Virus record (IMG/VR): IMGVR_UViG_3300010365_001171
Span: 1-64,000 of that record
Strand: one strand, 5' to 3'
Source: a virus
Lineage: Duplodnaviria; Caudoviricetes
DNA: 64,000 nucleotides
The position numbers and the translations under genes were made by a program. This document shows positions 13,288-39,289 of the stretch, piece by piece (positions within the stretch are counted from its first letter, which is position 1; every line of letters begins with the position of its first letter). The notes under the pieces were generated by a model. That model saw only the letters and a list, made by a program, of their open reading frames with translations, ran no database searches and had not been told where the DNA came from.

Positions 13288-14193
13288 ATGAAAGATATAA
13301 ATAAAAAAGAAGTAATTGCCAAATTACACAGTGAAGGTAAAAATGACAGTGAAATAGCTAAAATTTTAAATATTGATAGCACTTTAGTAATTTACTATAG
13401 AAAAAAGCTAGGATTAAAAAGTAATTTTTCTTATTCTAGTAAATTAGATAAAGTTAAAGAAGTATTAATAAAATTAGTAAATGAGGGGTACAGCGATTAC
13501 AGGTTAGAGCAAATATTTAATATAAACTATAACACTATATTTAATTATAGAAAAAAGTACGGTATATTAAAAGAAGATCTAAGACCTAATAAAGCAATAG
13601 AATTAACTCAATTTCAAAAAGAAGTGTTATTAGGAACATTATTAGGGGATGGTTCGATGCGTTTTGGTAAAGACCAGAAGTCTCCTTTAGTAATAATAGA
13701 ACACGGGAAAAAACAAAGGCCTTATGTTAAGCATAAATCAGAGGTTTTTGCCTCTTTAAATGCAAATTATAAGGAGTATAAAAGAAAAACTGTCGACGAA
13801 AGGACAGGTATTTTTTATGAATCTGGGGTATGTTTTATTCCAAGTAACCCTGAGTTTGTTCCTATTTATCATTCTTTTTATAAGGATAAAATTAAAAAAA
13901 TACCCTTTGATTTATTAAATAATTTTACAGCTGTTTCATTAGCCTATTTATTTATGGATGATGGTTCAAAAGCAAAAAGTGGTTATAATATTGCTTTAAA
14001 TGCTTTTAATATAGAAGAATTAACTAAATTTAGTTCTTTCTTATTATTAAAATTTAATATACAAAGCTCTGTGAATACTACAGGTACTTTGTACATAAAA
14101 GCAGAAAGTAAGGACCTATTTAAAAGTTTAGTACTACCATATATGCATGATACCTTACTTTATAAATTACATTACAGTCTCGTAACTTCGTGA
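13288..14193 (+). CDS. intron-encoded LAGLIDADG homing endonuclease with N-terminal HTH repeats
   Basis: LLGTLLGDGS and LAYLFMDDGS motifs. Confidence 0.9.
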   Translation: MKDINKKEVIAKLHSEGKNDSEIAKILNIDSTLVIYYRKKLGLKSNFSYSSKLDKVKEVLIKLVNEGYSDYRLEQIFNINYNTIFNYRKKYGILKEDLRPNKAIELTQFQKEVLLGTLLGDGSMRFGKDQKSPLVIIEHGKKQRPYVKHKSEVFASLNANYKEYKRKTVDERTGIFYESGVCFIPSNPEFVPIYHSFYKDKIKKIPFDLLNNFTAVSLAYLFMDDGSKAKSGYNIALNAFNIEELTKFSSFLLLKFNIQSSVNTTGTLYIKAESKDLFKSLVLPYMHDTLLYKLHYSLVTS

Positions 14194-16005: not shown

Positions 16006-16959
16006 TTGTTTACGACTAAAAATAAAATTACCAGTATAAAGGATATTCCAGATTCTTGGATATATAAAAATTATTTAAACTTAGATATTGCGAACTTACC
16101 TACAAAGATAAGTTCTCCTTTTAGAATAGATGATAATGCCTCTTTTGGTTTTTTTACAGTTGAAAACGGAAGTGTTTTATGGAAAGATTTAAGAACAAGA
16201 GAAAGTGGTAATGCGCTTTCTCTTGCCTTAAAATTTATTTTACTTAAAAATCCGGGTTTAACTAAAGAGGAAACAATAAAAAAACTTAGGGAAGATTTCG
16301 CTGAAAATAAAAACTCTATTGAAATTTTACCGGCTTTTGCTGCTCCTTTAAAAAAGAAACTTTTTAAGATAAAAGAAGTAAAAAGACACTGGAATAAAAG
16401 TGATAAAGAATTTTGGGAGCAGTTTAAAATCACATTAAATGATTTAAATTTAGCTAACGTTATTCCACTTTACGAATACTTAATGACAGTAAATGAAAAA
16501 TCTTTTGTAATAAAAAATACAGCTCTTTATGGTTATTATACTAAGAAAGGTGAGCTTTATAAAATATATCAACCTTTAAATAAAGATCAAAAGTTTATAA
16601 CTGTAAATGCTTCTATAATTGAAGGTGAAGGTTTTGAACGGGGCTTTAAATATAGAGGGTTACTTTCAAGTAAAAAAGATATTTTAAGTTTTAACAAACT
16701 TGAGTTATATATAGATAGTTATGCGCCAAATTCTGAAACTACTTATTTAACAAAAGAAGAAATAAAAAGATTAAAACTAAATTTTACATGTTTAGACAAT
16801 GACCCCGCAGGTATAGAAGCAATGTTATATTATAAAGAAAATTATAACATACCATTTGTATATTTAAATTATGAGAAAGATGTAAGTGACGCTATTAAAA
16901 AATATGGCGTTAGTTTTATTAAAGAAATAATTGTGCCAAAAATAAATAATATTATATAA
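16006..16959 (+). CDS. DNA primase (TOPRIM), crAss-like
   Basis: SPFRIDDNASF, SSKKD, PNSET, LDNDPAG, KDVSDA motifs. Confidence 0.85.
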   Translation: MFTTKNKITSIKDIPDSWIYKNYLNLDIANLPTKISSPFRIDDNASFGFFTVENGSVLWKDLRTRESGNALSLALKFILLKNPGLTKEETIKKLREDFAENKNSIEILPAFAAPLKKKLFKIKEVKRHWNKSDKEFWEQFKITLNDLNLANVIPLYEYLMTVNEKSFVIKNTALYGYYTKKGELYKIYQPLNKDQKFITVNASIIEGEGFERGFKYRGLLSSKKDILSFNKLELYIDSYAPNSETTYLTKEEIKRLKLNFTCLDNDPAGIEAMLYYKENYNIPFVYLNYEKDVSDAIKKYGVSFIKEIIVPKINNII

Positions 16960-16962
16960 AAA

Positions 16963-17736
16963 ATGATAGTAGAATTTAAACCGTATAAAAATTTAGCTGA
17001 AATAGCAGGAAGTTTTATACAATGGAGTTTTGTTAAACAAGACAAGGAAAAAGTTTGGCGAGCATTACATTCGCCCTTTGTATGTAAAGATTTTATTCAA
17101 GATATGTTTTGGGCTGAAATAATGGGAAAAACATATGACTTATATGGGTTTACTTATAGAAATGAGTTACAACCTATATTAAAGGATAGTTTTTATACTG
17201 TAGCTATTAAAGAGCAAAGTAGTGAAAATCATAGCGGACCATTTAATGATTTAGACGTAAAAGAAGAAAATCTATTAAAATTTTTAAATGGATTTTCTAT
17301 ATTAACTAAATTATACTTTAAAAAAATACAAACAAGTGTTTCAGATGACAAAAAAACTCTTGTAATTAGAATTAGTAAAGACGTATTTTCACACCCTGTT
17401 ATTATAAGCTTATTTACATTTTTAGTAAGAATTGGTTTAAAATACAAAGGAAGTGTTTCACCAGAAGAATTCTTAGAAAAAGGTGAACTTTTTGGTAATG
17501 ACGCTGGTTACAGAAGTGCCGCTATTTTTGTTTTAAAAGAAATTAAATCAAAAAAATTTATTAGTTCGTTTAAAGATTTTTCCAGTATTAACAAGATTCA
17601 TAATAATTCAGGTATTGTAGCTTGTCTTAAAGACCCTGCAAAATTTTTTAATCAGAAAGCAGTACCAGCTTATGAAGGAATGACTTATAAATTTGAGTCG
17701 CAAGAGGAATTAGTTCAATTTTTACAGACTTTGTAA
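16963..17736 (+). CDS. hypothetical protein heading the amidoligase operon
   Basis: CKDFIQD motif; first gene of the tightly packed cluster. Confidence 0.55.
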   Translation: MIVEFKPYKNLAEIAGSFIQWSFVKQDKEKVWRALHSPFVCKDFIQDMFWAEIMGKTYDLYGFTYRNELQPILKDSFYTVAIKEQSSENHSGPFNDLDVKEENLLKFLNGFSILTKLYFKKIQTSVSDDKKTLVIRISKDVFSHPVIISLFTFLVRIGLKYKGSVSPEEFLEKGELFGNDAGYRSAAIFVLKEIKSKKFISSFKDFSSINKIHNNSGIVACLKDPAKFFNQKAVPAYEGMTYKFESQEELVQFLQTL

Positions 17737-17757
17737 TAAAAATTTAATTTAAAAACA

Positions 17758-18126
17758 ATGGAAACAAATAAAAAGTTAGTTTTAACCTACGGGAGTTTAA
17801 GAGTAGGTGAGTATAACCATGACTCTTTTAAACGACAGTACAAAGAAGGTTACAAATACGTAAAAAGTCTTGAATTAGATGGTTACGATCTTTATTCTTT
17901 AGGCTCATATCCAGGAATTAAAGAAGGCAGCGGAAAGTTAAAAGTAGATTTATTTGAATGTTCTAAAGAATGTTATATGAGTATTAGAGGCATGGAACTA
18001 GGTGCAGGGTACTCTGAAAAAGTAATTGAATTAGAAGAAGGTGGTGCAGTATTATATTTATACGATCATTCAGTGAAACAAGATAGAATTGTAGAAGACG
18101 GAGATTGGGTAAACAGAAATAAATAA
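17758..18126 (+). CDS. gamma-glutamylcyclotransferase (AIG2-like)
   Basis: TYGSLRVGEYN, LYSLGSYPG, GDW motifs. Confidence 0.9.
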   Translation: METNKKLVLTYGSLRVGEYNHDSFKRQYKEGYKYVKSLELDGYDLYSLGSYPGIKEGSGKLKVDLFECSKECYMSIRGMELGAGYSEKVIELEEGGAVLYLYDHSVKQDRIVEDGDWVNRNK

Positions 18127-18131
18127 ACAAA

Positions 18132-19073
18132 ATGCCAGAAAACAAATTAAATATCTTAGTAGCAAGACACGGAAGACCGTCTCAAAAAAAAGTGTTTGAA
18201 AAAACAGAAAATTCTGAACTAATCATTAGATCAGCAATTTTCGAAGGCTTTGTCCACAGAAAAAATCCAGAAAATTTAAAATTAAGAAAAAAAGTTAAAA
18301 ATCTAAATTTAAAAATTGATTCCGGTATTTTAATTCGTTGGGGATGTACATCAAATGCCGATACATCAAATTGTATAGTGTATAACAAAGCTAACGCTAT
18401 TAAGTTGGCAAATGATAAGCTTGCTGCTAGAAAGGCCCTAGAAGCGGCTAATATAGCTATTCCAAAAACTTATTCTTTTTCAGATATTCAAAGTAATTCG
18501 TCTAATGTAGTTTGGCCTGTAATAGGCCGCCCTAAACAACATGGGCAAGGAAAAGAATTTCATATTTGTAATAATATACAAGAAGTTCAAAATAGTAGAA
18601 ATAATAAAAACTGTGTTTACTGGTCAGAAGTTTACCATAAAACCAGGGAGTTCAGGGTACATTGTATGCATGGTAAAATTGCCTCTATATTACAAAAGCC
18701 CTCACCCACAAACCCTGAATCACACGCTTGGAACTTTCACCAGCAACATCTTGCATTTCAAAATATTCCTCACAGTGATTGGAAAAATTATATTTGTAAA
18801 ACAGCTCTAGCAGCAGTTGAAGCATTGGGATTAAATTGGGGGGGCGTAGACGTGATGGTATGTGATAACTATCAAGAATTAAACGTACCTAGAATAGTAG
18901 TATGTGAAGTAAACACTGCTCCTACATTAACGTCTTCTGAATTTACTATGTCAAAGTATCTTAAATACTTTGAATGGTTAAGAAGACAACCCACAAGACG
19001 TGAACATTGGGATTGGAAATCTTATACAAGCCCAAAGTCTCATGCTTGGTTAGAAAGTCATTTTGAAAACTAA
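18132..19073 (+). CDS. ATP-grasp peptide ligase (RimK-like)
   Basis: DKLAAR, REFRVH, GGVDV, EVNTAP motifs. Confidence 0.85.
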   Translation: MPENKLNILVARHGRPSQKKVFEKTENSELIIRSAIFEGFVHRKNPENLKLRKKVKNLNLKIDSGILIRWGCTSNADTSNCIVYNKANAIKLANDKLAARKALEAANIAIPKTYSFSDIQSNSSNVVWPVIGRPKQHGQGKEFHICNNIQEVQNSRNNKNCVYWSEVYHKTREFRVHCMHGKIASILQKPSPTNPESHAWNFHQQHLAFQNIPHSDWKNYICKTALAAVEALGLNWGGVDVMVCDNYQELNVPRIVVCEVNTAPTLTSSEFTMSKYLKYFEWLRRQPTRREHWDWKSYTSPKSHAWLESHFEN

Positions 19074-19088
19074 AATTAAAAAAATAAT

Positions 19089-20879
19089 ATGTGCGGAATA
19101 GTCGCTTATTTAGGAAAAAATAAAATAGATATACCAAAGTTTAAATTGTTGTTATTGTTAAATAAGGACCGTGGGGGAGATGCAACTGGCATCTCCCTAA
19201 ATGGAAATGTTTATAAATCAGTAGATTCTATTGATACCTTTATAACAAAAAATACAATTAACTATTATAAAAAAGGTATTGCAATAGGGCATGTAAGGAA
19301 GAAGTCGGCTGGAATTAACTCTAAAGAACAGGCCCACCCTATTATAGTTTATAGTGATGGGGATACAATTAAGTACCAATCAACAGAAAAGCCGGAGTTT
19401 ATATTAGTTATGAATGGTACAGTAACTAATATTAAAGAGTTAAGTACAAAGTACGGTACTAAAATGTTAACGAATGATTCTGATTCTCAGCATATTGCAA
19501 AAATTTTACACAAGCTAGGCAAAGAAGATTTTATTAATTTTTTCTCTGAGTATGAAGGTGCTTGTACATCAATATTTTACTGGACTGATGAGCCAGGAAA
19601 AGTTTATATATCAAAGGACATAGAAAGACCACTATTTGTATATGAAGATGTAGCTGGTGATATTTGGTTATCTTCAAAGGAAGATAGTTTAACGGCTGTA
19701 ACTAGTTTTAGTGATGAAAAAGACTTTTCGATACAAAAATATCAGGACAATGCCATTCATATATATGAAAATTCCGTACTAACAAAAACCATTAAGTTCA
19801 AAAAATACATTGCACCCTTCTATTCAAGAGGTGAGATAGATTATAGTCCTGCACATCAGAGGAATTTTAATAAGCACATGTATAAAAGCAAATTGACTGA
19901 TAAATTATCTGGGCATATTAAAGATTCAAAAAGATTTCACGGAATAGAAATATTTTTTGATACCAACTCATTAAAATATTGTTTAAACCCAAAAAAACCG
20001 GAAGAATTTCTTCATGGCAGTCATAAACTACAAAATGGTGAAACATTTAATTTTTTATTTGGTAATCATATTACAGATGACGCTTTTTATAATGAGATGA
20101 TTACAGAATATCCAGATCTTGCATACAAAGCTAAATTTATAATACAGATGGCTCCAGTAGAGGTAAGTAATTATTCTTCAAACCCAGTAAAAGGTTTACA
20201 TAACATATATTATCAAAATAAATTAATAGGTGGATCTAGCTCTGTTGCGTTTAAATTACCTCCATGTGGTTTAATTGGAACTTGTTCTAGTAATATTACA
20301 ACTGTTTCAGAGTTGAATCTTTATTATTTTCAAGGAACATATAACTATGCTAGAGCTGAAATTATTTTAATCGTAGAAGAACTATTAGATAATCCAGATA
20401 TTGATTCATTAAGTCAATTATGGAAAACCGTAATTTTAAAAGCAGTAGAATCAAATATTATGGTTAACATGGATGAGTTTATTTTAGCTCTTTTACATGT
20501 ATTTTCTAACGTCTTAACTAAATACGAAGGGCTAAACTTTATTTGGCAAAGTGTAGTATTAGCTGAATTTAATATAATAAATGTTGAAAACACAGATTTA
20601 TTGATGATAATAGAAGAATTATTGTATTTAAGCTGCACAGAACTTTCGTCATTATTTAATTCTCCAGAAAGTACTATATTTCAGACATTTTTTATAGGAA
20701 CTAGAAAAGAGTTTTTAACACATCTCGAATCTGTAATACCAGCAAATAAATCTTGTTTTATTATAGGTATAATTACACTTTATGTGTTAGAGTTTATTTC
20801 AATAGACGACCTTTTAACAGGTTTAATAACAGAAGATGACATTGAATTGGAGACTTTGGCTTATACCACATTAACATAG
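19089..20879 (+). CDS. class II (Ntn) glutamine amidotransferase with long C-terminal extension
   Basis: MCGIV N-terminal Cys, RGGDATG, GHVRK.S, AHP, NGT, DSDS. Confidence 0.85.
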   Translation: MCGIVAYLGKNKIDIPKFKLLLLLNKDRGGDATGISLNGNVYKSVDSIDTFITKNTINYYKKGIAIGHVRKKSAGINSKEQAHPIIVYSDGDTIKYQSTEKPEFILVMNGTVTNIKELSTKYGTKMLTNDSDSQHIAKILHKLGKEDFINFFSEYEGACTSIFYWTDEPGKVYISKDIERPLFVYEDVAGDIWLSSKEDSLTAVTSFSDEKDFSIQKYQDNAIHIYENSVLTKTIKFKKYIAPFYSRGEIDYSPAHQRNFNKHMYKSKLTDKLSGHIKDSKRFHGIEIFFDTNSLKYCLNPKKPEEFLHGSHKLQNGETFNFLFGNHITDDAFYNEMITEYPDLAYKAKFIIQMAPVEVSNYSSNPVKGLHNIYYQNKLIGGSSSVAFKLPPCGLIGTCSSNITTVSELNLYYFQGTYNYARAEIILIVEELLDNPDIDSLSQLWKTVILKAVESNIMVNMDEFILALLHVFSNVLTKYEGLNFIWQSVVLAEFNIINVENTDLLMIIEELLYLSCTELSSLFNSPESTIFQTFFIGTRKEFLTHLESVIPANKSCFIIGIITLYVLEFISIDDLLTGLITEDDIELETLAYTTLT

Positions 20880-20882
20880 AAA

Positions 20883-22364
20883 ATGAAAAAAATTGAAATA
20901 GATGGTTGGAAATACAACCTTTCCGATCCTGAAATCGGTTTTGTAAAAAATCAGGGGTACAAAATTATAACAGGAAAGAATTATTATTGTGCATTAGATG
21001 AAAATTTAAGGTTAATATACTTTAAAAATGAAGGGTTTAATTTACAATTTTGTGTTCAATCCGCCTTAATTAATGAAAAGTTACAAACAGCAGAAGGAAG
21101 AGATTTAATAACAATAAATTTTGGAGCTATTGCTTCTAAAAACAATACACTAGCTATAAAAACAAAGTTAAAAAATAAAATTTGTAATGATATCTTTTTT
21201 ATAAATAGTGCTGCTGCTATTAAAAATGGGTTTATAGAATCTTTTTTAGATGGTATTTTTTATGAGAAAAATGAAATTTATGATTTAAGCTCTATTAAAA
21301 AAATTAATAATGTAAAACATTTTAATTTTAAAGATAAATACAATGTATCAGATTATAAAAAAGATTATTTAAAACAAATCGAAGAAGCGAGTAACGATGT
21401 AAAGTTTAAAAATAACTTTGATCTTTTAAAATTTTATCGTAAATATCTCAAAGATTTTTCTTTTGGCGTAGAATTAGAATTTTCAAATGGCTATATTAGA
21501 CCTGAAGATTGTTTTTTAAATAATTTTGTAGGATTACGAGACGGCTCAGTGGCTGAAACAGGATCAGAGTTAGCATCTTTACCGATTTTTGATTACAGAG
21601 GTATTCATAAAGTTAAAAATATGATGGAAATCCTTGAAACTCGTACTAGTGTAGATCATACTTGTTCTACACATATCCATGTAGGCAATTTACGTACAGA
21701 TAACCTATTTATTTCTAATATTTATAAAGTATTACTTAGTTTACAAAATGAGCTTTACCAAGCATTTCCTCAAACACGTAATCAAGAAGTGAACGGAAAA
21801 AGGTATTGTGCACCATTACCAAAACTAGATCTTACTTTAAACAGAGGAAATTTAAAATCTGGGTTGACTAAAAATGTTGAAAAAATATTTGCGAGTTCAA
21901 ATGGTGGAAGAGGCTATGAAAAAGCCCACTCTTCTTTAGAATTAAGACAAGTTGAAAACGGGTTGTTTAAAAAAGTTTTACGAGAAACATATTACTGTAA
22001 AAAATCAAACATTTCTGTTTATGATGGCATTCCTAAGTATAATATTCCAGCAAGGTACTTTATAGTTAATTTTTTTAATTTTCTACTTAAGCCTGTAAAA
22101 ACAATGGAATTTAGAATAATGGAAGGAACTTCTAGTTTTAACGCCTTTATTAATTGGGTATCATTAATTGTTGCAATAATTAAATACGCCGAAAAATTAC
22201 ACCCAATGAAAAACATTGATGGGTTAACTTTAAAAACAGTAATTTCTGATTATTTTGAAACAAAAGAAGCCTCAAAATTAATCACTTATTGGGAGAAAAG
22301 AAAAGAAATTTTTAAAGTAGACATTAAAAACAGTAAATTACTAAACGATTTTAAAATATATTAA
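20883..22364 (+). CDS. putative amidoligase (COOH-NH2 ligase, glutamate-cysteine-ligase fold)
   Basis: FGVELEF, DGSV, ELAS, CSTHIHVG, TMEFR motifs. Confidence 0.85.
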   Translation: MKKIEIDGWKYNLSDPEIGFVKNQGYKIITGKNYYCALDENLRLIYFKNEGFNLQFCVQSALINEKLQTAEGRDLITINFGAIASKNNTLAIKTKLKNKICNDIFFINSAAAIKNGFIESFLDGIFYEKNEIYDLSSIKKINNVKHFNFKDKYNVSDYKKDYLKQIEEASNDVKFKNNFDLLKFYRKYLKDFSFGVELEFSNGYIRPEDCFLNNFVGLRDGSVAETGSELASLPIFDYRGIHKVKNMMEILETRTSVDHTCSTHIHVGNLRTDNLFISNIYKVLLSLQNELYQAFPQTRNQEVNGKRYCAPLPKLDLTLNRGNLKSGLTKNVEKIFASSNGGRGYEKAHSSLELRQVENGLFKKVLRETYYCKKSNISVYDGIPKYNIPARYFIVNFFNFLLKPVKTMEFRIMEGTSSFNAFINWVSLIVAIIKYAEKLHPMKNIDGLTLKTVISDYFETKEASKLITYWEKRKEIFKVDIKNSKLLNDFKIY

Positions 22365-22366
22365 AA

Positions 22367-22640
22367 ATGCAAAAAGAAAAATTATTTAATTTTTTTATAT
22401 CTGCCAATCAAATTGAAGAGTTTGAATGGTTGAATAAAATCGGCGGTAAAAGAGTAAATACGCTTGAAGAGGCACAAGTAATACTTTTTAATGGAGGAAC
22501 AGATATAAACCCTATTATGTACGGGGAAAAACGTGGGAGATATACAAATATTTCTGATTTAAAAAGAGATAAAGAAGAAGTGGAAGATTACTTCAAAGCA
22601 CAAAAACTAGGTTTAATTTGTGTAGGTGTATGCCGTGGGT
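22367..22640 (+). CDS. class I glutamine amidotransferase / peptidase C26, exon 1
   Basis: FNGGTDINP..YGE, RD..E, GVCRG nucleophile elbow; exon ends at U22640. Confidence 0.85.
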
Positions 22641-22749
22641 TAAATGTGGCCCACGTTAAACAGGGTGAATTCAGGGAACGCTGAAACGCCAATCCTGAGC
22701 TAAGCATTAAAAGAAATTTTAATGAAAGTGCAACGACTAGCAGTCGAGA

Positions 22750-23481
22750 CTAAGTTTTCAGTGTTATATCTGGAAATACGTCAGTAATACTGCCAAGAGC
22801 GCCCTGAATTTTATAATGTTCAATTATTTTATTAATATTTTTAGAAAAATTTTGCAGTTGTAAAAAATCTGCTGCATTTTTCATAGAATTTGCTAGACGA
22901 GAAATTATCCATATATTTCCTTTAATATACCCTTTAGAGTTGTCTATCCTGTCTACAGTGGCCCTATTAAATTTATTTGAATTACCTTTTGAAGTGTAAT
23001 CCAATTTGATATTTAATAAAGGGCATACCTCAGGTAATTCAATGTCAGAGTAATGTAAATTAAAATCATCATTTATATTATTTTTATTTCTTTTAGATGA
23101 ATATTTTATATTTCTTATAATATAACCTCTTATTCTATCTAAATCACTTAAATATATATTTTGAAATAATTTATGAGGTAAATTATAAAAATTACGTAAT
23201 TCACATACTCTTTGGGTATTAATTTTTTTTCTTATAAACAAAGGATGTTTTTGTAACTTTAAAATTATATCAGGAATTTTTTGATTATTTAAATATAAAT
23301 CAGTAAAAAAATTTTTAAATTCCTTATGTTCTAAAAGTTTCCTTATAACTAACGCACATGGTAAATTGCTTTGTTCTCTTATTCTTCTTACAAAATCTAT
23401 ATTCTTGTGGAGTTTAAGTGCAATTTCTTTATTAGTTAGTCCTTGTTTAATTAAATTTAAAATTAATAATTTCTCGTTCAT
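22750..23481 (-). CDS. intron-encoded HNH homing endonuclease, antisense to the intron
   Basis: CPLL...TVDRIDNSKGYIKGNIWIISRLANSMKN His-Me finger motif; N-terminal HTH. Confidence 0.88.
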   Translation of the reverse strand: MNEKLLILNLIKQGLTNKEIALKLHKNIDFVRRIREQSNLPCALVIRKLLEHKEFKNFFTDLYLNNQKIPDIILKLQKHPLFIRKKINTQRVCELRNFYNLPHKLFQNIYLSDLDRIRGYIIRNIKYSSKRNKNNINDDFNLHYSDIELPEVCPLLNIKLDYTSKGNSNKFNRATVDRIDNSKGYIKGNIWIISRLANSMKNAADFLQLQNFSKNINKIIEHYKIQGALGSITDVFPDITLKT

Positions 23482-23509
23482 TGTAATATGATTATTATGT
23501 TATATATTA

Positions 23510-23540
23510 CAATATAATAAAAATAATTTGAAATAACAAA
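23510..23540 (-). promoter_or_regulatory. promoter-like TTTG-N20-TATATTG driving the antisense HNH
   Basis: Plus-strand CAATATA 23510-23516 and CAAA 23537-23540. Confidence 0.6.
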
Positions 23541-23621
23541 TATAAAATTATGATATAGTCTGACCTTATACAAAAAAAAGTATAAGAAGTAGAGGATAAA
23601 GAGCCTTTACGATAACATTAG

Positions 23622-24070
23622 CACAACTTCTCACTGTTTTAAACGGTGGAAAATTAATACAACATGTTGAAAAACATAATGCTCCCCATAATTATATAGA
23701 TATTTATGGCACGGATATTCTAATACCATCTTCTCACCATCAAATGATGTTGCCAAAAGAAGATGAAAACTGTATAATAATTGGGATAGCTCCATCTAAT
23801 TTTACAGGCCGTTATTTAAATGGGGATAATAAAGAAATAACATTCACAAAAAATTTTATGGAAATTGAGACTTGTTATTTTAAAAAAACAAATTCTCTCT
23901 GTATTCAAACACATCCTGATTGGTATATTGACATAGGTATTAAAATATTTGGAGGTTATTTACTTAAACTATTAAATAAAGAAGTTATCTCACCTCAGGA
24001 TACTTTACAAAGAAATTACAGAATAACAAGAAGAATTCCTATTGAACGAATACAATTAAAAAAAAACTAA
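23622..24070 (+). CDS. class I glutamine amidotransferase / peptidase C26, exon 2
   Basis: QLLTVLNGGKLIQHV..SSHHQMM..EIE..QTHPD; in frame with the tracked ORF 23744. Confidence 0.85.
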
Positions 24071-24071
24071 A

Positions 24072-24767
24072 ATGAATAAAAAAATAATAGGCATACCGGG
24101 CTGGATCTTAGGAACAAGTGGTTTTGGTGTAAAAACACCATATATAGAGTATGTCTCAAGATTTGGAATACCTTTAATTTTAACACCTCAAATGAATGAG
24201 GTTATGCCAATAGATCTCTTATTTTTACCTGGGGGTGCAGATGTAGATCCACATAGATATGGAGAAACTCCTAGTTATCTTACTGGCAATCCAAATTTAA
24301 TGCTAGAGTTTTTTGACAAAACCATGCTACAAAGATATATTGATGAAGATATTCCAATAATTGCGTGTTGTCGTGGATTACAAACCGTAGTAGCGTTGTA
24401 TGGTGGTAAATTAACACAAGACTTACCTTTTCATTCTCAGTCTGCTCATAATACTCATATAGCACATACTCTTGCATTTACAGAGGGTTATGAGTATTTG
24501 GAAAAACAAAGCCGTCATACAAATTCTAGGCATCATCAATGTGCTGATCCAAATAATTTGCCACAAGAATTAGAAATTATTGCGTTTGCGGAAGAATTAC
24601 AAGGTAAACAAGCTATCACTGACTACAGTGTACCAGAAGTAATAATTCACAGAGAAAAGAATATATTTCTTTATCAAGGACATCTAGAAGACTTACCGGG
24701 AGAAAATTTAGGAGATTTTGTATTTGATTTATACTTGAATGGTGGTAAAATTAAAAAACAACCTTAA
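24072..24767 (+). CDS. second peptidase C26 / gamma-glutamyl hydrolase (PuuD-like)
   Basis: LPGGADVDP, CCRGLQ, NSRHHQ, YQGHLE. Confidence 0.88.
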   Translation: MNKKIIGIPGWILGTSGFGVKTPYIEYVSRFGIPLILTPQMNEVMPIDLLFLPGGADVDPHRYGETPSYLTGNPNLMLEFFDKTMLQRYIDEDIPIIACCRGLQTVVALYGGKLTQDLPFHSQSAHNTHIAHTLAFTEGYEYLEKQSRHTNSRHHQCADPNNLPQELEIIAFAEELQGKQAITDYSVPEVIIHREKNIFLYQGHLEDLPGENLGDFVFDLYLNGGKIKKQP

Positions 24768-25584
24768 TTTAAAGGACTTTAAATTAGGTTTTGACCCAGA
24801 GTTTTTATTATTAGATACAAATCTAAACAGACATGTATCTGGATTAACTTATAACTTTGGGGATAAGAGTAATGGACGAGAAATTTGTCCAGACTGTACG
24901 GTTGAAAATGACATGGTAACACTAGAAATAGTGTTACCACCAGTCAATATCGAAGATGGCTTAGACAAATGTTGGGAAAACTTTTCCACCGTAAAAGATT
25001 TACTACAAAAAGAATTACCTGAAAATATCGTAATTGATTGTTGTAGTTATGCCGAATTTACCAAAGAAGAATTAGCCACGGAGAAAGCAAGTACAGGAGG
25101 ATGTTCGATAGATTTTAATGCATGGAATAATGGAGAACCAAATAAATCTCCAAAGTTTAAAACTCCTTACAGATCATCAGGGGCCCATATACATTTTGGA
25201 ATGCCTACTCTTACCTATAAGCAAATGGTTCAAATAGTAAAGTTAACAGATCTTTTTATTACGTTACCTTTAATTTTTAATCAAAGTAATATAGAGAGAA
25301 GAAAACTTTATGGGGCAGCTGGGGCCTTTAGATGTGTAGAAGGACGAGTTGAAGCAAGATCTCCTTCTAACTGTTACTGGTCTTCAAAAGAGGGGCTAGA
25401 ATGGGTGTTTAATCAAGCTAAAATTATTCTTGGTTTAGTTGACACTGAAATCATGGAAACCGTTGAGTACTACAAAGAAAAAATTATTGAGGCAATAAAC
25501 TTTGATAATTTAGAGTTAGCGACAGAGTTAATGGAAATATTTAATATTAAATACGCCCCATTACCTGTTTTAGAAACAACATAA
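24739..25584 (+). CDS. phiEco32-like COOH-NH2 ligase type 2
   Basis: GFDPEF, D...LEI, GCSIDFNAW, RSSGAHIHFG, RR.LYG.AG.FR, VEAR. Confidence 0.88.
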   Translation: MVVKLKNNLNLKDFKLGFDPEFLLLDTNLNRHVSGLTYNFGDKSNGREICPDCTVENDMVTLEIVLPPVNIEDGLDKCWENFSTVKDLLQKELPENIVIDCCSYAEFTKEELATEKASTGGCSIDFNAWNNGEPNKSPKFKTPYRSSGAHIHFGMPTLTYKQMVQIVKLTDLFITLPLIFNQSNIERRKLYGAAGAFRCVEGRVEARSPSNCYWSSKEGLEWVFNQAKIILGLVDTEIMETVEYYKEKIIEAINFDNLELATELMEIFNIKYAPLPVLETT

Positions 25585-25626
25585 AATAAACAGAGTTTAT
25601 AATTTAATGTAAACTCTGTTTATTTT
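25583..25626 (+). terminator. intrinsic terminator closing the amidoligase operon
   Basis: AAAATAAACAGAGTTTA-loop-TAAACTCTGTTTATTTT followed by T-rich sequence. Confidence 0.8.
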
Positions 25627-25683: not shown

Positions 25684-26070
25684 ATGGATTTTATCAAAAT
25701 AAATGGCAATGTGCCCTCATCAAAAAATAGCAGAATTTTTAATTATAAATTAAAAAAATCTTTCCATTCTAAAACTACTCAAAAATTTGTAAAAAGTTCT
25801 GAGAGCGAATTCATAGAACAAAAAGAAAAGTTTTTATCCTTAATAAAAAATAAAAGTAAACCTTTTAAAATAGGGCTACATTTTATTAGGGATTCAAAAA
25901 GAAAATGGGACTTTATAAATATGTGTCAAATTATTTTTGACTTAATGGTAAAAAATAATTGGATAGATGATGATAATACCAATGAAATAGTTCCATTTCC
26001 TGTAGAAATTGACAACGAATACTATACAGTAGATAAAAATTTAGCGGGGGTTTTAATAACTATATTATGA
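25684..26070 (+). CDS. RusA-like Holliday junction resolvase
   Basis: GNVPSSKN, D.IN..Q...D......WIDDDN motif. Confidence 0.8.
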   Translation: MDFIKINGNVPSSKNSRIFNYKLKKSFHSKTTQKFVKSSESEFIEQKEKFLSLIKNKSKPFKIGLHFIRDSKRKWDFINMCQIIFDLMVKNNWIDDDNTNEIVPFPVEIDNEYYTVDKNLAGVLITIL

Positions 26071-26798
26071 AAAATTTAGATAGAACTTTATATTACGAAG
26101 TTTCTGGTATTTATAAAATTCAATCCCAGATTGATTCTAGATGTTATATAGGCTCAAGTAAAAATTTATATAAAAGAATAAACTCTCATATTAATGAATT
26201 AATTAATAAAAAACATCCTAATAGTAAATTACAAAATTTTATTAATAAGTATGGTATAGAGTGTTTAAATGTAGAAGTATTAATTTCAAACGTAGAATTA
26301 TCTGATATTTATAAATTAGAAACTATTAAAATAAAAGAATATAAAGCTTTTGAAGAGGGATTTAATTTACAAGAAGAGGCAATACCTATTAAAGGGCGGC
26401 CATTAACAAGCGAACACAAAGAAAAAATAAAAGCTACGCACATTAAAAATAAAGATAAAAATTTACCTATATATTTAAAAAATTTAAATTTAGCTAGAAA
26501 ACAAGTTAAGTTAAATAATGAAATTTTAAAACTAGTAGGTAAAAAAAGACAGGCCCCAAACAAAGGTATAAAGGCTTCAGACGAAACTAGATTTAAACAA
26601 AGAATGGTAAAATTAGGAAAACCGTCTTTAAAAAAAATCAAAGTAAATTGTTTATATAAAGATGGCACTTTTTACAAAACATATGACTCTATACAAGAGG
26701 CTGCAAATGCTTCTGGAGCAAACGTGCCTAATATATGTGCGGTATGTAAAAATAAAAGAAAATCAACAGCTGGCTTTTTATGGGCATACTGTGTATAA
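26067..26798 (+). CDS. free-standing GIY-YIG homing endonuclease with NUMOD-type DNA-binding repeats
   Basis: SGIYKI...YIGSSKNLYKR; C-terminal Y.SI.EAA...I..VC...RKS.AG..W. Confidence 0.9.
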   Translation: MKNLDRTLYYEVSGIYKIQSQIDSRCYIGSSKNLYKRINSHINELINKKHPNSKLQNFINKYGIECLNVEVLISNVELSDIYKLETIKIKEYKAFEEGFNLQEEAIPIKGRPLTSEHKEKIKATHIKNKDKNLPIYLKNLNLARKQVKLNNEILKLVGKKRQAPNKGIKASDETRFKQRMVKLGKPSLKKIKVNCLYKDGTFYKTYDSIQEAANASGANVPNICAVCKNKRKSTAGFLWAYCV

Positions 26799-36158: not shown

Positions 36159-38390
36159 TGAGACTATTTTTAGATAAGTATTATAGTACAGAAACAATAG
36201 CTGATTTATCAAAAAACGACACTTTTTTAATAAAAGAAGACAATAAAGTAGTTAAAATTGTTAAAGCTAGTTTATTATACGCAAGTTATCCTTGTGTGAG
36301 CTTTACAAAAGGTCACGAATTATTGGAATACTTTAAAGCTAATTATTTTAGGGTAGATGAAATTTGTCTTTCATACGAATCGGGGTTTAGTGATAAAGAA
36401 ATACCTAAAACCAGCATACAAAGTCAAAAATTAAAGGCAAAAGTAAGTTTATTGAATGGGCCAAGGATTATTGATATTATATCAAAATTTTGTGAGGAAA
36501 CTGAAATTATTGCTCCTATATTTTATATCCACGAAACTGACTTACTTAGATTAAATTTATTTAATAAAGGAATATGCAAAGAAAAGAAATAAAAAAAACA
36601 AAGTGTTTAAATACTAGAATTTGTAGGGCCTGTAATTCTTTTAGAAAGCCTAATTCTGTTTGTAAATGTTTACCAGTTAAAACGAATACTTTACAATCTT
36701 TGGATAAAAAACTAATAAAATTTTTTGTTGATAAAAATTGTATTTATATAGGAGACTTTTCTTGGAAAATCCGAAATAAAAATGTATTTATTAGTTTATT
36801 TTACGACACATATAAAGATTATTATATAGGAGTTAAACCAGAGTACAGAAAAAACTTTTCCGGTAAAACTATTTTAGTCAAGTATTCTATTTTAAATATA
36901 AGAAATGTAGATCACCTAGTAATTAAATCAATTTTAGTGGAAGAGGAGTATTTAATTTCTTGTGCCTCTATACATAAAAACGTAAAAGGAAAAAATTTTA
37001 TTACCGGGGGGTTACAAAAACCACAATCAAACGTAAAGATATTTACAAATTTAGTTTTAGTAGAAGGAAAATTTTATAAAAAATTATGATTATAAAAAAA
37101 GATGGCGTAATATTAAAAACGTATTTAAAATTATTTGCAAAATTTGGATTTGAGCCAGCATTAAAAACCGATATTACAGATACCCCAACAACAACTTACT
37201 CAGAATTATTTACTTGGGCAGAAAATTGCCTTCGTATAGAGATAATAATAGAAAACAGGGTTATAAAAATATATAACACAGATGGTAAATTATTAAAATT
37301 AAATACGGTATTAGAACATTCTGAGATGTTACGAAAAACTATGTATACTTTATACGTTTTTATGACTAAGAACATAATAGAGTGTTATAAATCATTTAAA
37401 TTTTATGGTAAATTTTACAAAGATTTTAATTCTACTATTTCTATGTTAAATTATAATTCTAAAGAAGTCTATAAAAGAAAGCTTAACACTAAAAAAGATT
37501 TTACTTTTAATGAGGTTTTATTAGAAGCAACACAAGACTTATTAAACAAATTATTATTTAGAGAATCTGTACAGAGTAGTAATAATACTTTTGCTGATAA
37601 AAGTTGTATAAAATTTGTCCAATCATTAAATGATGCGTGTAATTTTAATTTAACCTCAAATTTTCATGAGGACAAAAAAATTGAAGACACTAAAACAGAG
37701 TTTATTAGATTAGAAGCTCTTTTAAAAAGTCTTAAAGCTGAAAAAGTAAAAGGCCCAGAAAGTATTTTAAAAATAATTAAATCCTTTAAAACATTAACAA
37801 AACCAGTAATTTTCAAACAAATAAAATTTTATAAAGATGCTTAAAATAGGTGATATAGTTAGAGTAATAGATGACAAACAATATGAAAATCTAGAAGGAA
37901 AACCGGATTTAAAGTTAGGAGAAATTTGTTCTGTTCACAATTTACTTGTACACAATGGTTGTGTTCATGTGGATGTGGGTAAAAAAACGGATAAAAATTA
38001 TATAAGATGTAAACATACATTGGAAAACTTAGATTTAAATTTATTTAGGCAAAACACTGAATGGTGTTCACCAGATAGATTTGAATTAGTACAAAAATAA
38101 TGGTAAAAACATTTGAAAAAGTAATTTGTAACAGCAATATTATAAATCAAATAAATGCAGGGATTCGTTATTACAAAACACCCCAAATTTTTAGGCTTTG
38201 GTTCTATAAAACTAAAAATGATGTATCAATATCTTTATTTTATAGGCTTAATTTTAAAGAGGATAATAATATAAGACAAATCGTTGAATTAAGTGAGGTT
38301 TACGAAAAATCTCCTAAGTACAAAAAAGATTTAAACCAAAAGAAAAAAAATGTGGGGATTTTAAAAAAATTATTAACTCTATTTAAATGA
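36158..38390 (+). CDS. run of five hypothetical ORFs (36158-36592, 36574-37089, 37086-37844, 37837-38100, 38100-38390)
   Basis: Overlapping co-oriented ORFs; 36574 has a CxxC...CxC cluster. Confidence 0.65.
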
Positions 38391-39289
38391 GCGGAAAGCG
38401 TTATAACAAAGGTAAAATTAGGTATGATTTAATACCAACAGGTCCGATGAAATATTTAGGAGACACTTATACTAAAGGGGCCCATAAATATACCTTGTAC
38501 AAGGACTCAGATGGTAATTTTCATAAGGGGTCTGAAATAACTATCAAAGAATCTTTATCTATGGAAGTAATTGATTCTGGTGCCAATAATTGGCGTAAAG
38601 GTTTAAGCTTTATGGAAACAATTGCTTCTGTAGAAAGGCATATAAGTGATTGGAAAGTAGGAAAAGAAATAGATGAAGATTTAGGTACTGCAAATTTATC
38701 AAATGCTGCGTGGGGTTTATTTTCTCTTTTAGAATTAGGTAAAACTCATCCTGAAAAAGACGATAGACCCTTTTGGTTTAATAAACAGTTTAAAAAAGTA
38801 GTGTTAGATTTAGACGGTGTTGTAGGAGCTTTTGAAGAGCACTTAATTAATAAGGGCTATATAGATAAAGATATTCCTGTAACACACTGGCAAGACCCTA
38901 GAATAAAGCCTATTTTAAAAATTATAAAAGAAGATAAAGAATTTTGGGTAAGTATGCCATTACTTATAGATGTTAAAAATTTAAATTATCCAATTGCGGG
39001 ATACTGCACAGCTAGAAGTATACCCTTAGAATGGATAGAGGAATGGATGTTAATAAATTTAATACCACTTGCACCTATTTTAAAAGTAGATTTTGGGGAA
39101 TCAAAATCAAAAGTTTTAAAAGAATTTGGTTGTGATATAATGATAGATGATTCAATTGAAAATTTTGTAGATTTAAACAGTTCGGGAATTTCTTGTTTTT
39201 TAAAAACAAGGACACACAATAAGAATTACAATGTAGGAAACAGAAGAATAGATAATCTAGAAATTTTTTTAAATTCATTACAAGTATGA
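38387..39289 (+). CDS. DUF5664 (dATP/dGTP diphosphohydrolase-like) fused to a HAD 5'(3')-nucleotidase
   Basis: GKRYNKGK.RYDLIP, GA.KY, NW.KG, S.ERH, AAW; then LDLDGV...MIDDS. Confidence 0.8.
   Translation: MSGKRYNKGKIRYDLIPTGPMKYLGDTYTKGAHKYTLYKDSDGNFHKGSEITIKESLSMEVIDSGANNWRKGLSFMETIASVERHISDWKVGKEIDEDLGTANLSNAAWGLFSLLELGKTHPEKDDRPFWFNKQFKKVVLDLDGVVGAFEEHLINKGYIDKDIPVTHWQDPRIKPILKIIKEDKEFWVSMPLLIDVKNLNYPIAGYCTARSIPLEWIEEWMLINLIPLAPILKVDFGESKSKVLKEFGCDIMIDDSIENFVDLNSSGISCFLKTRTHNKNYNVGNRRIDNLEIFLNSLQV

Follow-up and report, generated by a model that had tools for sequence, protein, structure and literature searches.

Tailed phages of the phiEco32, LUZ24 and RIO-1 types carry an amidoligase cassette, a linked set of genes for amide ligases and glutamine amidotransferases (GATases). 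As recounted in PMC5498523, the cassette was predicted from genomes by Iyer, Abhiman, Burroughs and Aravind in 2009, and for RIO-1-like phages the same account speaks of a 'peptidoglycan modification cassette', with reference to the 2009 work and to Hardies et al. 2013. It has been annotated in LUZ24-like phages (PMC3890496) and in OM43 phages, where it is read as peptidoglycan modification (PMC10580990). When Pseudoalteromonas phage HP1 infects, expression starts at once with the cassette genes, ahead of all others (PMC7082346). Here we analyse a copy of this cassette in the viral record IMGVR_UViG_3300010365_001171, of which positions 1 to 64,000 form the stretch of DNA studied (hereafter the window; all coordinates refer to it). 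The source genome is a single contig of 85,117 bp. It has a G+C content of ~28% and encodes a block of giant proteins on the minus strand, as is typical of crAss-like phages. A preliminary description of the window, made from its sequence, had likened the locus to the phiEco32-type cluster and noted that no product had been demonstrated. The likeness is correct, in that the core families are the same, and by profile assignment the locus is a crAss-like variant of the known phiEco32/LUZ24/RIO-1-type cassette. The literature that we searched likewise yielded no experimentally identified cassette product or target, and papers on Migulavirinae immunity and on NARP3 make no mention of the cassette enzymes.

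The cassette lies at positions 16963-25584 on the + strand and consists of three ATP-dependent amide ligases, four glutamine- or gamma-glutamyl-cleaving enzymes and a protein that we call O1. Open reading frame (ORF) calling and profile searches give the gene order O1-GGCT-ATPgrasp-GATaseII-Amidoligase_2-C26-C26-COOH-NH2_lig. Specifically, O1 (16963..17736), a 257-aa protein without a Pfam, PHROG or NCBIfam match, is followed by a GGACT/AIG2 gamma-glutamyl(amine) cyclotransferase (GGCT; 17758..18126; PF06094, E-value 2.5e-11, 44.6 bits against a cut-off of 22.8), a RimK-superfamily ATP-grasp ligase (18132..19073; phrog_2599, 5e-26) and a class II, N-terminal nucleophile (Ntn), GATase (19089..20879; PF13522, 2.1e-10, 41.2 bits; PF13537). 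The gene for Amidoligase_2, a COOH-NH2 ligase related to glutamine synthetase (GS), begins 3 nt after the class II GATase gene (20883..22364; PF12224, 9.4e-10, 39.2 bits against a cut-off of 22; phrog_2443, 8e-19). Then come two C26/class I GATase-type enzymes, the first in two exons (22367..24070) and the second uninterrupted (24072..24767; PF07722, 3.1e-21; PF00117, 5.2e-9), and a phiEco32-type COOH-NH2 ligase type 2 (24739..25584; PF14395, 2.8e-6, 27.2 bits against a cut-off of 25; phrog_3815, 1.4e-32). All cassette genes are on the + strand, separated by spacers of 1-21 nt or overlapping, and a terminator-like hairpin with a 19-bp stem and a T run (25583..25626, +) closes the unit at its 3′ end.

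The cassette is embedded in the replication block. The start of O1 is 3 nt past the stop of an upstream DNA primase gene (16006..16959, +; phrog_12622, 1.1e-15; 1.6e-19 to the 'DNA primase' of phage cr108_1), so that the eight enzyme-type genes of the cassette are read through from the helicase and primase genes, together with the replication genes. The preliminary description had named the domains and placed them correctly, as profile searches confirm. Its count of eight genes holds after splicing, since a 981-nt group I intron, on which the description was silent, interrupts the first C26 gene. It had called the unit terminator-bounded, which is right for the 3′ end; the 5′ end adjoins the primase gene. 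It had also presented the block as inserted between primase and resolvase. The flanks are right, but insertion is not supported: the G+C content of the cassette is that of the rest of the genome and the position after the primase recurs in 44 of 85 loci, which argues that the block is not a recent insertion.

To place this copy among its relatives, we scanned IMG/VR with a profile built from an alignment of COOH-NH2 ligases. The scan gave 221 confirmed stretches, and 80 loci were kept; a search of IMG/VR with the single COOH-NH2 ligase protein had found no close relatives. Relatives of this ligase are present in 282 deposited phage records. Iterated hidden Markov models then assigned the cassette families over 107 loci in total. 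COOH-NH2 ligase was detected in 101 loci, Ntn-GATase in 97, ATP-grasp in 93, C26 in 92 and Amidoligase_2 in 89, with GGCT in 31 and O1 in 30. This co-occurrence, as seen in the profile assignments, is not a chance pattern. The crAss primase-cassette arrangement is found in the 44 of 85 loci mentioned above, and a RusA-like gene was also detected in 17.

Three gene orders were observed. The common crAss-like order, in 44 loci and cr108_1, is primase-(GGCT)-ATPgrasp-x-C26-(C26)-COOH-NH2_lig-GATaseII-Amidoligase_2-(RusA). In the window and in two uncultured contigs, L004 and L005, GATaseII-Amidoligase_2 stands ahead of C26-C26-COOH-NH2_lig. Phages of Pseudomonadota (such as NJ01 and an Alcaligenes phage) have the order C26-COOH-NH2_lig-~200aa-Amidoligase_2-GATaseII-ATPgrasp(-O1). 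Across these orders, Amidoligase_2 and Ntn-GATase are adjacent in 82 of 88 loci, ATP-grasp and O1 in 25 of 28, and C26 and COOH-NH2 ligase in 65 of 92. The persistence of the pairs through rearrangement is the informative part of the adjacency data, and the retention of three gene pairs through three gene orders, as assigned by profile, is a new observation.

The 38.6-kb contig L004, from a related crAss-like phage, has the same order as the window, primase-O1-GGCT-ATPgrasp-GATaseII-Amidoligase_2-C26-C26-COOH-NH2_lig-RusA. Identity between the two is 71% for the ATP-grasp ligase, 67% for GGCT, 64% for the second C26 and 63% for COOH-NH2 ligase, compared with 59% for the primase, and thus these four enzymes are conserved at least as well as a replication protein. 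The other four cassette proteins share 39-46% identity.

Other cassettes contain proteins in addition to these families. In cr108_1 (L001, 9451-11352) and 18 other crAss-like loci, 256-340-aa 'hypothetical' proteins between ATP-grasp and C26 align with the C26 profile in hhalign (E 2.5e-9) and are thus divergent relatives of C26, so that cr108_1-like cassettes would hold up to three C26 paralogues. Proteobacterial-phage cassettes have a conserved protein of ~200 aa that always lies between COOH-NH2 ligase and Amidoligase_2 (L002 9802-10419, L003 9737-10357 and 35 others). We considered whether it corresponds to the N-terminal region of crAss-type Amidoligase_2 and rejected this, as it has no detectable counterpart in crAss-type cassettes. 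Proteobacterial-phage cassettes at 27 loci (L094:3218-3388, L099:8578-8745, L060:14403-14654 and 24 others) also contain, after O1 or ATP-grasp, a 54-93-aa protein with a CxxC...CxxC Zn-ribbon and an acidic, aromatic-containing C-terminal tail. Its architecture recalls LysW, the amino-group carrier used by the RimK-family enzyme LysX. An assignment as a LysW-type protein was not retained: it has no Pfam support, and the protein is absent from the present 85,117-bp genome.

Every cassette enzyme family keeps residues of catalytic type in the homologue alignments. The preliminary description had pointed to degenerate catalytic residues as a test of its proposal; the residues are invariant in 32-58 homologues per family and are present in the window proteins. 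In particular, GGCT has the YGSL motif and the conserved E80, and K96, E173, R175, D240, E259 and N261 of the ATP-grasp ligase are invariant. Among NCBIfam models, the ATP-grasp ligase comes nearest to MptN, cyanophycin synthetase, RimK and LysX, in each case well short of the cut-off (44 against 350 for MptN; 34.7 bits against 143.4 for the RimK family alpha-L-glutamate ligase model TIGR00768). By these scores, it is a relative within the RimK superfamily and not a member of the RimK family. Residues D19, E21, E63, H150, R187, R198, E205 and R207 of COOH-NH2 ligase are invariant, as are E197, E199, D220, E229, H264, H266, E409 and R411 of Amidoligase_2, whose catalytic core (aa 192-456 by hhalign) is preceded by a poorly conserved N-terminal region of ~190 aa. 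For neither GS-like ligase were sequence relatives detectable in the PDB.

The PF07722 matches of the C26 pair reach 76.6 and 31.7 bits, and C89, Q93 and H189-P190 are invariant in 58 sequences. Splicing gives the first C26 protein the motifs CRGSQ and HPD; those of the second are CRGLQ and HLE. The nearest PDB sequences to the two proteins are Lin1909 and PuuD, and their nearest NCBIfam models are gamma-glutamyl-CDP-amidate hydrolase and PuuD, with the second copy equally near to TrpG-type amidotransferases. The class II GATase is composed of an Ntn domain (aa 1-240), with C2, R28, R70, N109, G110 and D132 invariant in 41 homologues, and a variable, probably non-catalytic C-terminal region. 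In a structural comparison with VIA, the modelled Ntn domain matches the glutaminase domains of GlmS (Z 24.8; 1xff, root-mean-square deviation 2.3 Å over 210 residues), PurF (Z 24.4) and GFAT, all at Z 24-25, and its score against the gamma-glutamyl hydrolase EgtC is nearly as high as against these true amidotransferases (Z 22.2). The C-terminal region varies from 197 to 418 aa among homologues, lacks invariant residues and yields a low-confidence model. Its sole fold match with VIA is winged-helix-like (Z ~7, residues 411-481), and against Atlas structures the TM-score stays below 0.4. No SIS, PRTase or PP-loop acceptor domain was recognised in it, an absence that is unproven because the region was not folded alone. 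None of the window's enzymes reaches an equivalog cut-off, and by sequence the nearest models indicate a likely mode of action and not an identity.

O1 is a large family without annotation, linked to the cassette, and its recognition is new in this analysis. No model for it exists in Pfam, PHROG or NCBIfam. An exhaustive profile search gathers 1,923 representative clusters with E<=1e-3, a number that falls to 1,215 when E<=1e-10 is required; most are 215-260 aa in length, and E13, C41, D43, H213 and G217 are invariant. Four close homologues were found, one of them on L004. An independent scan of IMG/VR seeded with O1 gave 22 loci, of which two are cut off and lack enough upstream DNA, while 20 have O1 right behind the ATP-grasp gene of a complete cassette. 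As all 20 loci with enough upstream DNA show this adjacency, O1 is a true, optional component of the cassette. It is all but missing from deposited phage genomes, with one weak match in a Leptolyngbya phage that also carries COOH-NH2 ligase.

The AlphaFold2 model of O1 has a pLDDT of 83.7 and finds no match in the PDB with Foldseek. In an exhaustive structural scan with VIA, 13 of the 17 top chains have the carboxylate-amine ligase fold (PafA, Dop, glutamine synthetases, GshA and YbdK-like proteins), and the Z scores of chains with the fold of GS, glutamate-cysteine ligase (GCL), PafA or Dop run from 5.6 to 3.9, below the tool's secure level. By hhalign, O1 matches none of the cassette families, the ligases included. 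BFVD holds one uncharacterised member of the O1 family, and the ESM Atlas gave no usable match. As a lead only, the model hints at a small, divergent GS/PafA-like fold.

To be whole, the first C26 gene is predicted to need splicing of a group I intron. Its reading frame ends at 22684 and opens again near 23600, and a 243-aa ORF occupies the minus strand in between. Exon 1 (22367..22640; PF07722, 1.7e-7) ends two codons past the catalytic Cys (CRG), and exon 2 (23622..24070; phrog_7218, 2.3e-12) carries the His-Pro-Asp of the triad. The 981-nt intron between them (22641..23621, +) matches the group I intron core RF00028 of Rfam at 22604-22857 (43.2 bits, E 2.3e-9). The score is below the gathering score of 50; the model cannot span the ORF insert of ~730 nt. 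In P1, the exon end CGUGGGU (22634-22640) pairs with GCCCACG (22649-22655) with the canonical U.G at the splice site, and the last base of the intron is G (23621). Computed joining of 22640 to 23622 yields a 240-aa protein with GVCRG-S-QLL across the junction, which aligns without gaps to the uninterrupted homologues of L004 (GICRGAQLL) and cr108_1 (2.8e-32 to gp031). Among the cassette loci compared, only this phage has the intron; the L004 copy is intronless.

Antisense to the intron lies an HNH-type homing endonuclease ORF (22750..23481, minus strand; phrog_3322 endonuclease, 1.1e-19; phrog_3118 HNH, 4.7e-10). With known phage group I introns that hold homing endonuclease genes, such as those of T4 td and nrdB and the polA introns of the same genome, this intron shares the P1 U.G, the terminal G, a partial RF00028 core and an internal HNH ORF. 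It differs from introns of the T4 td/nrdB type in that the host gene encodes an accessory C26 enzyme instead of a protein of DNA metabolism, and in that the endonuclease ORF is antisense. The final ~65 nt of the intron (23552-23617) share ~86% identity with unannotated DNA in phages of Clostridium perfringens and C. difficile. In Clostridium phage phiCP13O (L108, 1501-1562), the intron-like DNA ends right before the second piece of a split tape-measure gene, and it would appear to be a related intron, although both the host gene and the phage group are quite different.

What the cassette makes can be approached from this inventory. We favour, at about even confidence, the early synthesis of a small glutamate- or glutamine-type amide compound, a pseudo-peptide, by this crAss-like version of the cassette. 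Early in infection, the enzymes would act on a host-derived small carboxylate or amine substrate, and their product would be a small amide compound rather than a tag on a phage-encoded protein. The labour would be split into three modules that are kept together in evolution. In one, the RimK-like ATP-grasp ligase would add an amino acid, most likely L-glutamate, to a carboxylate via an acyl-phosphate, with O1 as a partner and, where present, GGCT able to remove a gamma-glutamyl group as 5-oxoproline. Another would consist of COOH-NH2 ligase type 2 with its C26 Cys-His partner or partners, and the last of Amidoligase_2 with the protein of Ntn amidotransferase fold, itself without a recognised synthase domain. 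In the latter two modules, the thiol enzyme may pass glutamine-derived ammonia to the acyl-phosphate of the ligase, converting a carboxylate to a carboxamide, or may strip a gamma-glutamyl handle that the ligase has installed. The sequences favour neither option; by analogy, every pair has a cellular precedent of the handle-removing kind.

Three observations point to a multistep route to a small molecule. Where ligases of different folds are linked, they usually carry out one ligation after another on a growing molecule during metabolite synthesis (PMC4431377). The Ntn protein, which has no recognised acceptor domain, is almost never found apart from Amidoligase_2. In crAss-type cassettes, no conserved non-enzyme partner was found. 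The proposal is also in keeping with the immediate expression in HP1 (PMC7082346), the invariant catalytic-type residues and the co-occurrence of the core families. A more specific and tentative form of this proposal, which we think improbable as it stands, is an assembly line of three ligase/gamma-glutamyl-cleaving pairs, comparable to BtrJ/BtrG, PuuA/PuuD and EgtA/EgtC, with O1 as a fourth, phage-only component, that makes a new metabolite. It would employ transient gamma-glutamyl handles or glutamine-derived nitrogen to transform an amine or carboxylate of the host, such as a polyamine or a nucleotide-linked acid. If true, such a metabolite would serve host takeover or counter-defence across hundreds of unrelated phages.

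Several points weigh against synthesis of a small amide compound. Neither this analysis nor the papers found give an observed product, substrate or protein complex, and the literature's own interpretation is peptidoglycan modification (PMC5498523, PMC10580990). The loci are phylogenetically related, and the adjacency counts overstate the number of independent events. C26 was undetected in one Kuravirus-type cassette examined (NJ01, L002), from which it follows that the C26/COOH-NH2 ligase module is not obligate. No fused ligase-amidotransferase protein was found in the 107 loci or in word-index searches, the absence being weak evidence. A host protein as the target may also be compatible with the sequences.

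Modification of the cell envelope would place unusual linkages or amidation in the stem-peptide precursors of peptidoglycan, or in another surface polymer, and thereby block superinfection. Bacteria amidate their peptidoglycan with MurT/GatD, a class I GATase/ligase pair, and with a class II GATase enzyme of the AsnB type, and the two GATase/ligase pairs of the cassette mirror this set. Both PMC5498523 and PMC10580990 state the envelope reading for the cassette, the former with reference to Iyer et al. and Hardies et al. 2013, and early expression as in HP1 (PMC7082346) would suit superinfection exclusion. We nevertheless regard it as rather unlikely, since it is a purely computational reading for which no muropeptide data were found, no cassette protein matches the Mur-ligase, MurT/GatD or AsnB synthetase domains, and the hosts of the cassette, from the Bacteroidota-type hosts of crAss-like phages to Pseudomonadota and cyanobacteria, differ greatly in their envelopes. 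A protein could instead be the acceptor, with the ligases attaching glutamate, glutamine or a short peptide to a host or phage protein and the hydrolases reversing it. RimK acting on S6, LysX on LysW and PafA on Pup are models for such tagging. Consistent with this, RimK and LysX are among the named families nearest to the ATP-grasp ligase, the best fold matches of O1 are, weakly, PafA and Dop (Z 5.6), and a LysW-like Zn-ribbon protein with an acidic tail accompanies the cassette in the 27 proteobacterial-phage loci. However, that protein is missing here and has no Pfam match to named carrier families, the RimK and LysX models score far under their cut-offs, and three ligases of different folds together with glutamine- and gamma-glutamyl-cleaving enzymes exceed the machinery of known tagging systems; we consider protein tagging unlikely. 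The preliminary description had proposed a reversible gamma-glutamyl tagging pathway, with the three ligases as writers and GGCT and C26 as erasers. The idea of paired addition and removal is borne out by real precedents for each pair (PuuD, EgtC and BtrG), whereas tagging of a target is no better supported than multistep biosynthesis, and crAss-type cassettes lack any conserved target or carrier protein.

From the placement of the cassette in the replication block, protein, nucleotide and anti-defence targets had also been suggested. The cassette does sit within genes of replication and nucleotide metabolism, and the NCBIfam model nearest to orthologues of the first C26, gamma-glutamyl-CDP-amidate hydrolase, has a nucleotide-linked substrate; both would suit modification of nucleotides or DNA, or other counter-defence chemistry on nucleic-acid precursors. 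Yet that match reaches 33 bits against a model cut-off of 250, and none of the 107 loci links the cassette to a gene for a hydroxymethylase, nucleotide kinase, glycosyltransferase or DNA-transferase. The placement itself does not discriminate, as it is general for the cassette in unrelated phages and corresponds to the general early/middle region of such phages (PMC5498523). We hold nucleic-acid chemistry to be very unlikely. The least probable account is that the cassette has no dedicated product and boosts the turnover of glutamine and glutamate or recycles host material. PMC5498523 does mention 'host material recycling genes' in the region, and several cassette enzymes are predicted to hydrolyse glutamine-type amides. 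Recycling, however, needs no three ATP-consuming ligases of phage-specific families without a cellular equivalog, and five families that are so strictly inherited together suggest that they serve one pathway.

The replication block around the cassette holds further genes. On the + strand between 12 and 40 kb are genes for replication and nucleotide metabolism, namely a DnaB-like helicase, an AAA_24 ATPase, the primase, PolA and a class I ribonucleotide reductase, and the cassette is flanked downstream by a RusA-like Holliday junction resolvase (25684..26070, +; phrog_1682, 3.9e-13). Several homing-endonuclease genes are scattered in this block: besides the antisense HNH ORF in the intron, there is a LAGLIDADG ORF just downstream of the DnaB-like gene (13288-14193) and a free-standing GIY-YIG/NUMOD gene after the RusA gene (26067-26798). 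A 300-aa protein (38387-39286, +) has the N-terminal domain of dATP/dGTP diphosphohydrolases (PF18909, 1.3e-17; phrog_801), the family known from 2-aminoadenine phages.

With 282 deposited records and 221 uncultured viral stretches, the cassette is among the most widespread product-unassigned enzyme sets in tailed phages, and a large share of crAss-like phages keep it at one fixed position within the replication block. The window copy leaves the product unsolved and sharpens the experiment, in that its three modules can be reconstituted separately. It also adds O1 as a partner family and provides, through L004, a natural set of intronless orthologues. Should the product prove to be a new metabolite or modification, the finding would extend alike to phages that infect gut, marine and clinical bacteria.

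Among cellular systems, PuuA, EgtA and BtrJ are the ligase halves of pairs that add and remove a gamma-glutamyl group. The window contains the same pairings of folds: a GS-fold ligase with a C26 hydrolase, as in PuuA/PuuD (putrescine); a GS/GCL-fold ligase with a hydrolase of the Ntn class II GATase fold, as in EgtA/EgtC (ergothioneine); and an ATP-grasp ligase with a GGCT-fold cyclotransferase, as in BtrJ/BtrG (butirosin), where BtrG removes a protective gamma-glutamyl group (10.1101/2025.01.15.633182). In all three pathways, redox, transfer or pyridoxal phosphate-dependent steps lie between addition and removal, whereas the cassette has no such enzymes, and the Ntn protein of the window differs from EgtC in its long extra C-terminal region. 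The resemblance may therefore indicate a possible working mode by analogy, not membership in these systems.

Among phages, a close arrangement is that of cr108_1 (NC_055878, gp028-gp034), whose annotation notes name Cellulophaga phage phi14:2, and of ~44 loci, with which the window shares the position right after the crAss primase, the families and the strand. Relative to this type, the window, L004 and L005 have GATaseII-Amidoligase_2 moved forward and O1 added, and the intron is found only in the window phage. With phages of the phiEco32, LUZ24-PaP3-tf-UFV-P2, RIO-1-PSA-HP1 and 7-11 types, the window has five core families in common (COOH-NH2_lig type 2, Amidoligase_2, class II GATase, RimK-like ATP-grasp and C26) plus GGCT, and in both the genes lie on one strand in the early or replication region, adjoining a primase or helicase gene. 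Compared with the phiEco32 type, the window has a different gene order, a duplicated C26 and an Amidoligase_2 with an extra N-terminal region, and compared with proteobacterial-phage cassettes it is without the ~200-aa middle protein and the Zn-ribbon protein. As a variant of these known cassettes, the window copy is marked by its rearranged module order, the duplicated C26, the added O1 family and an intron in the gene of an accessory enzyme.

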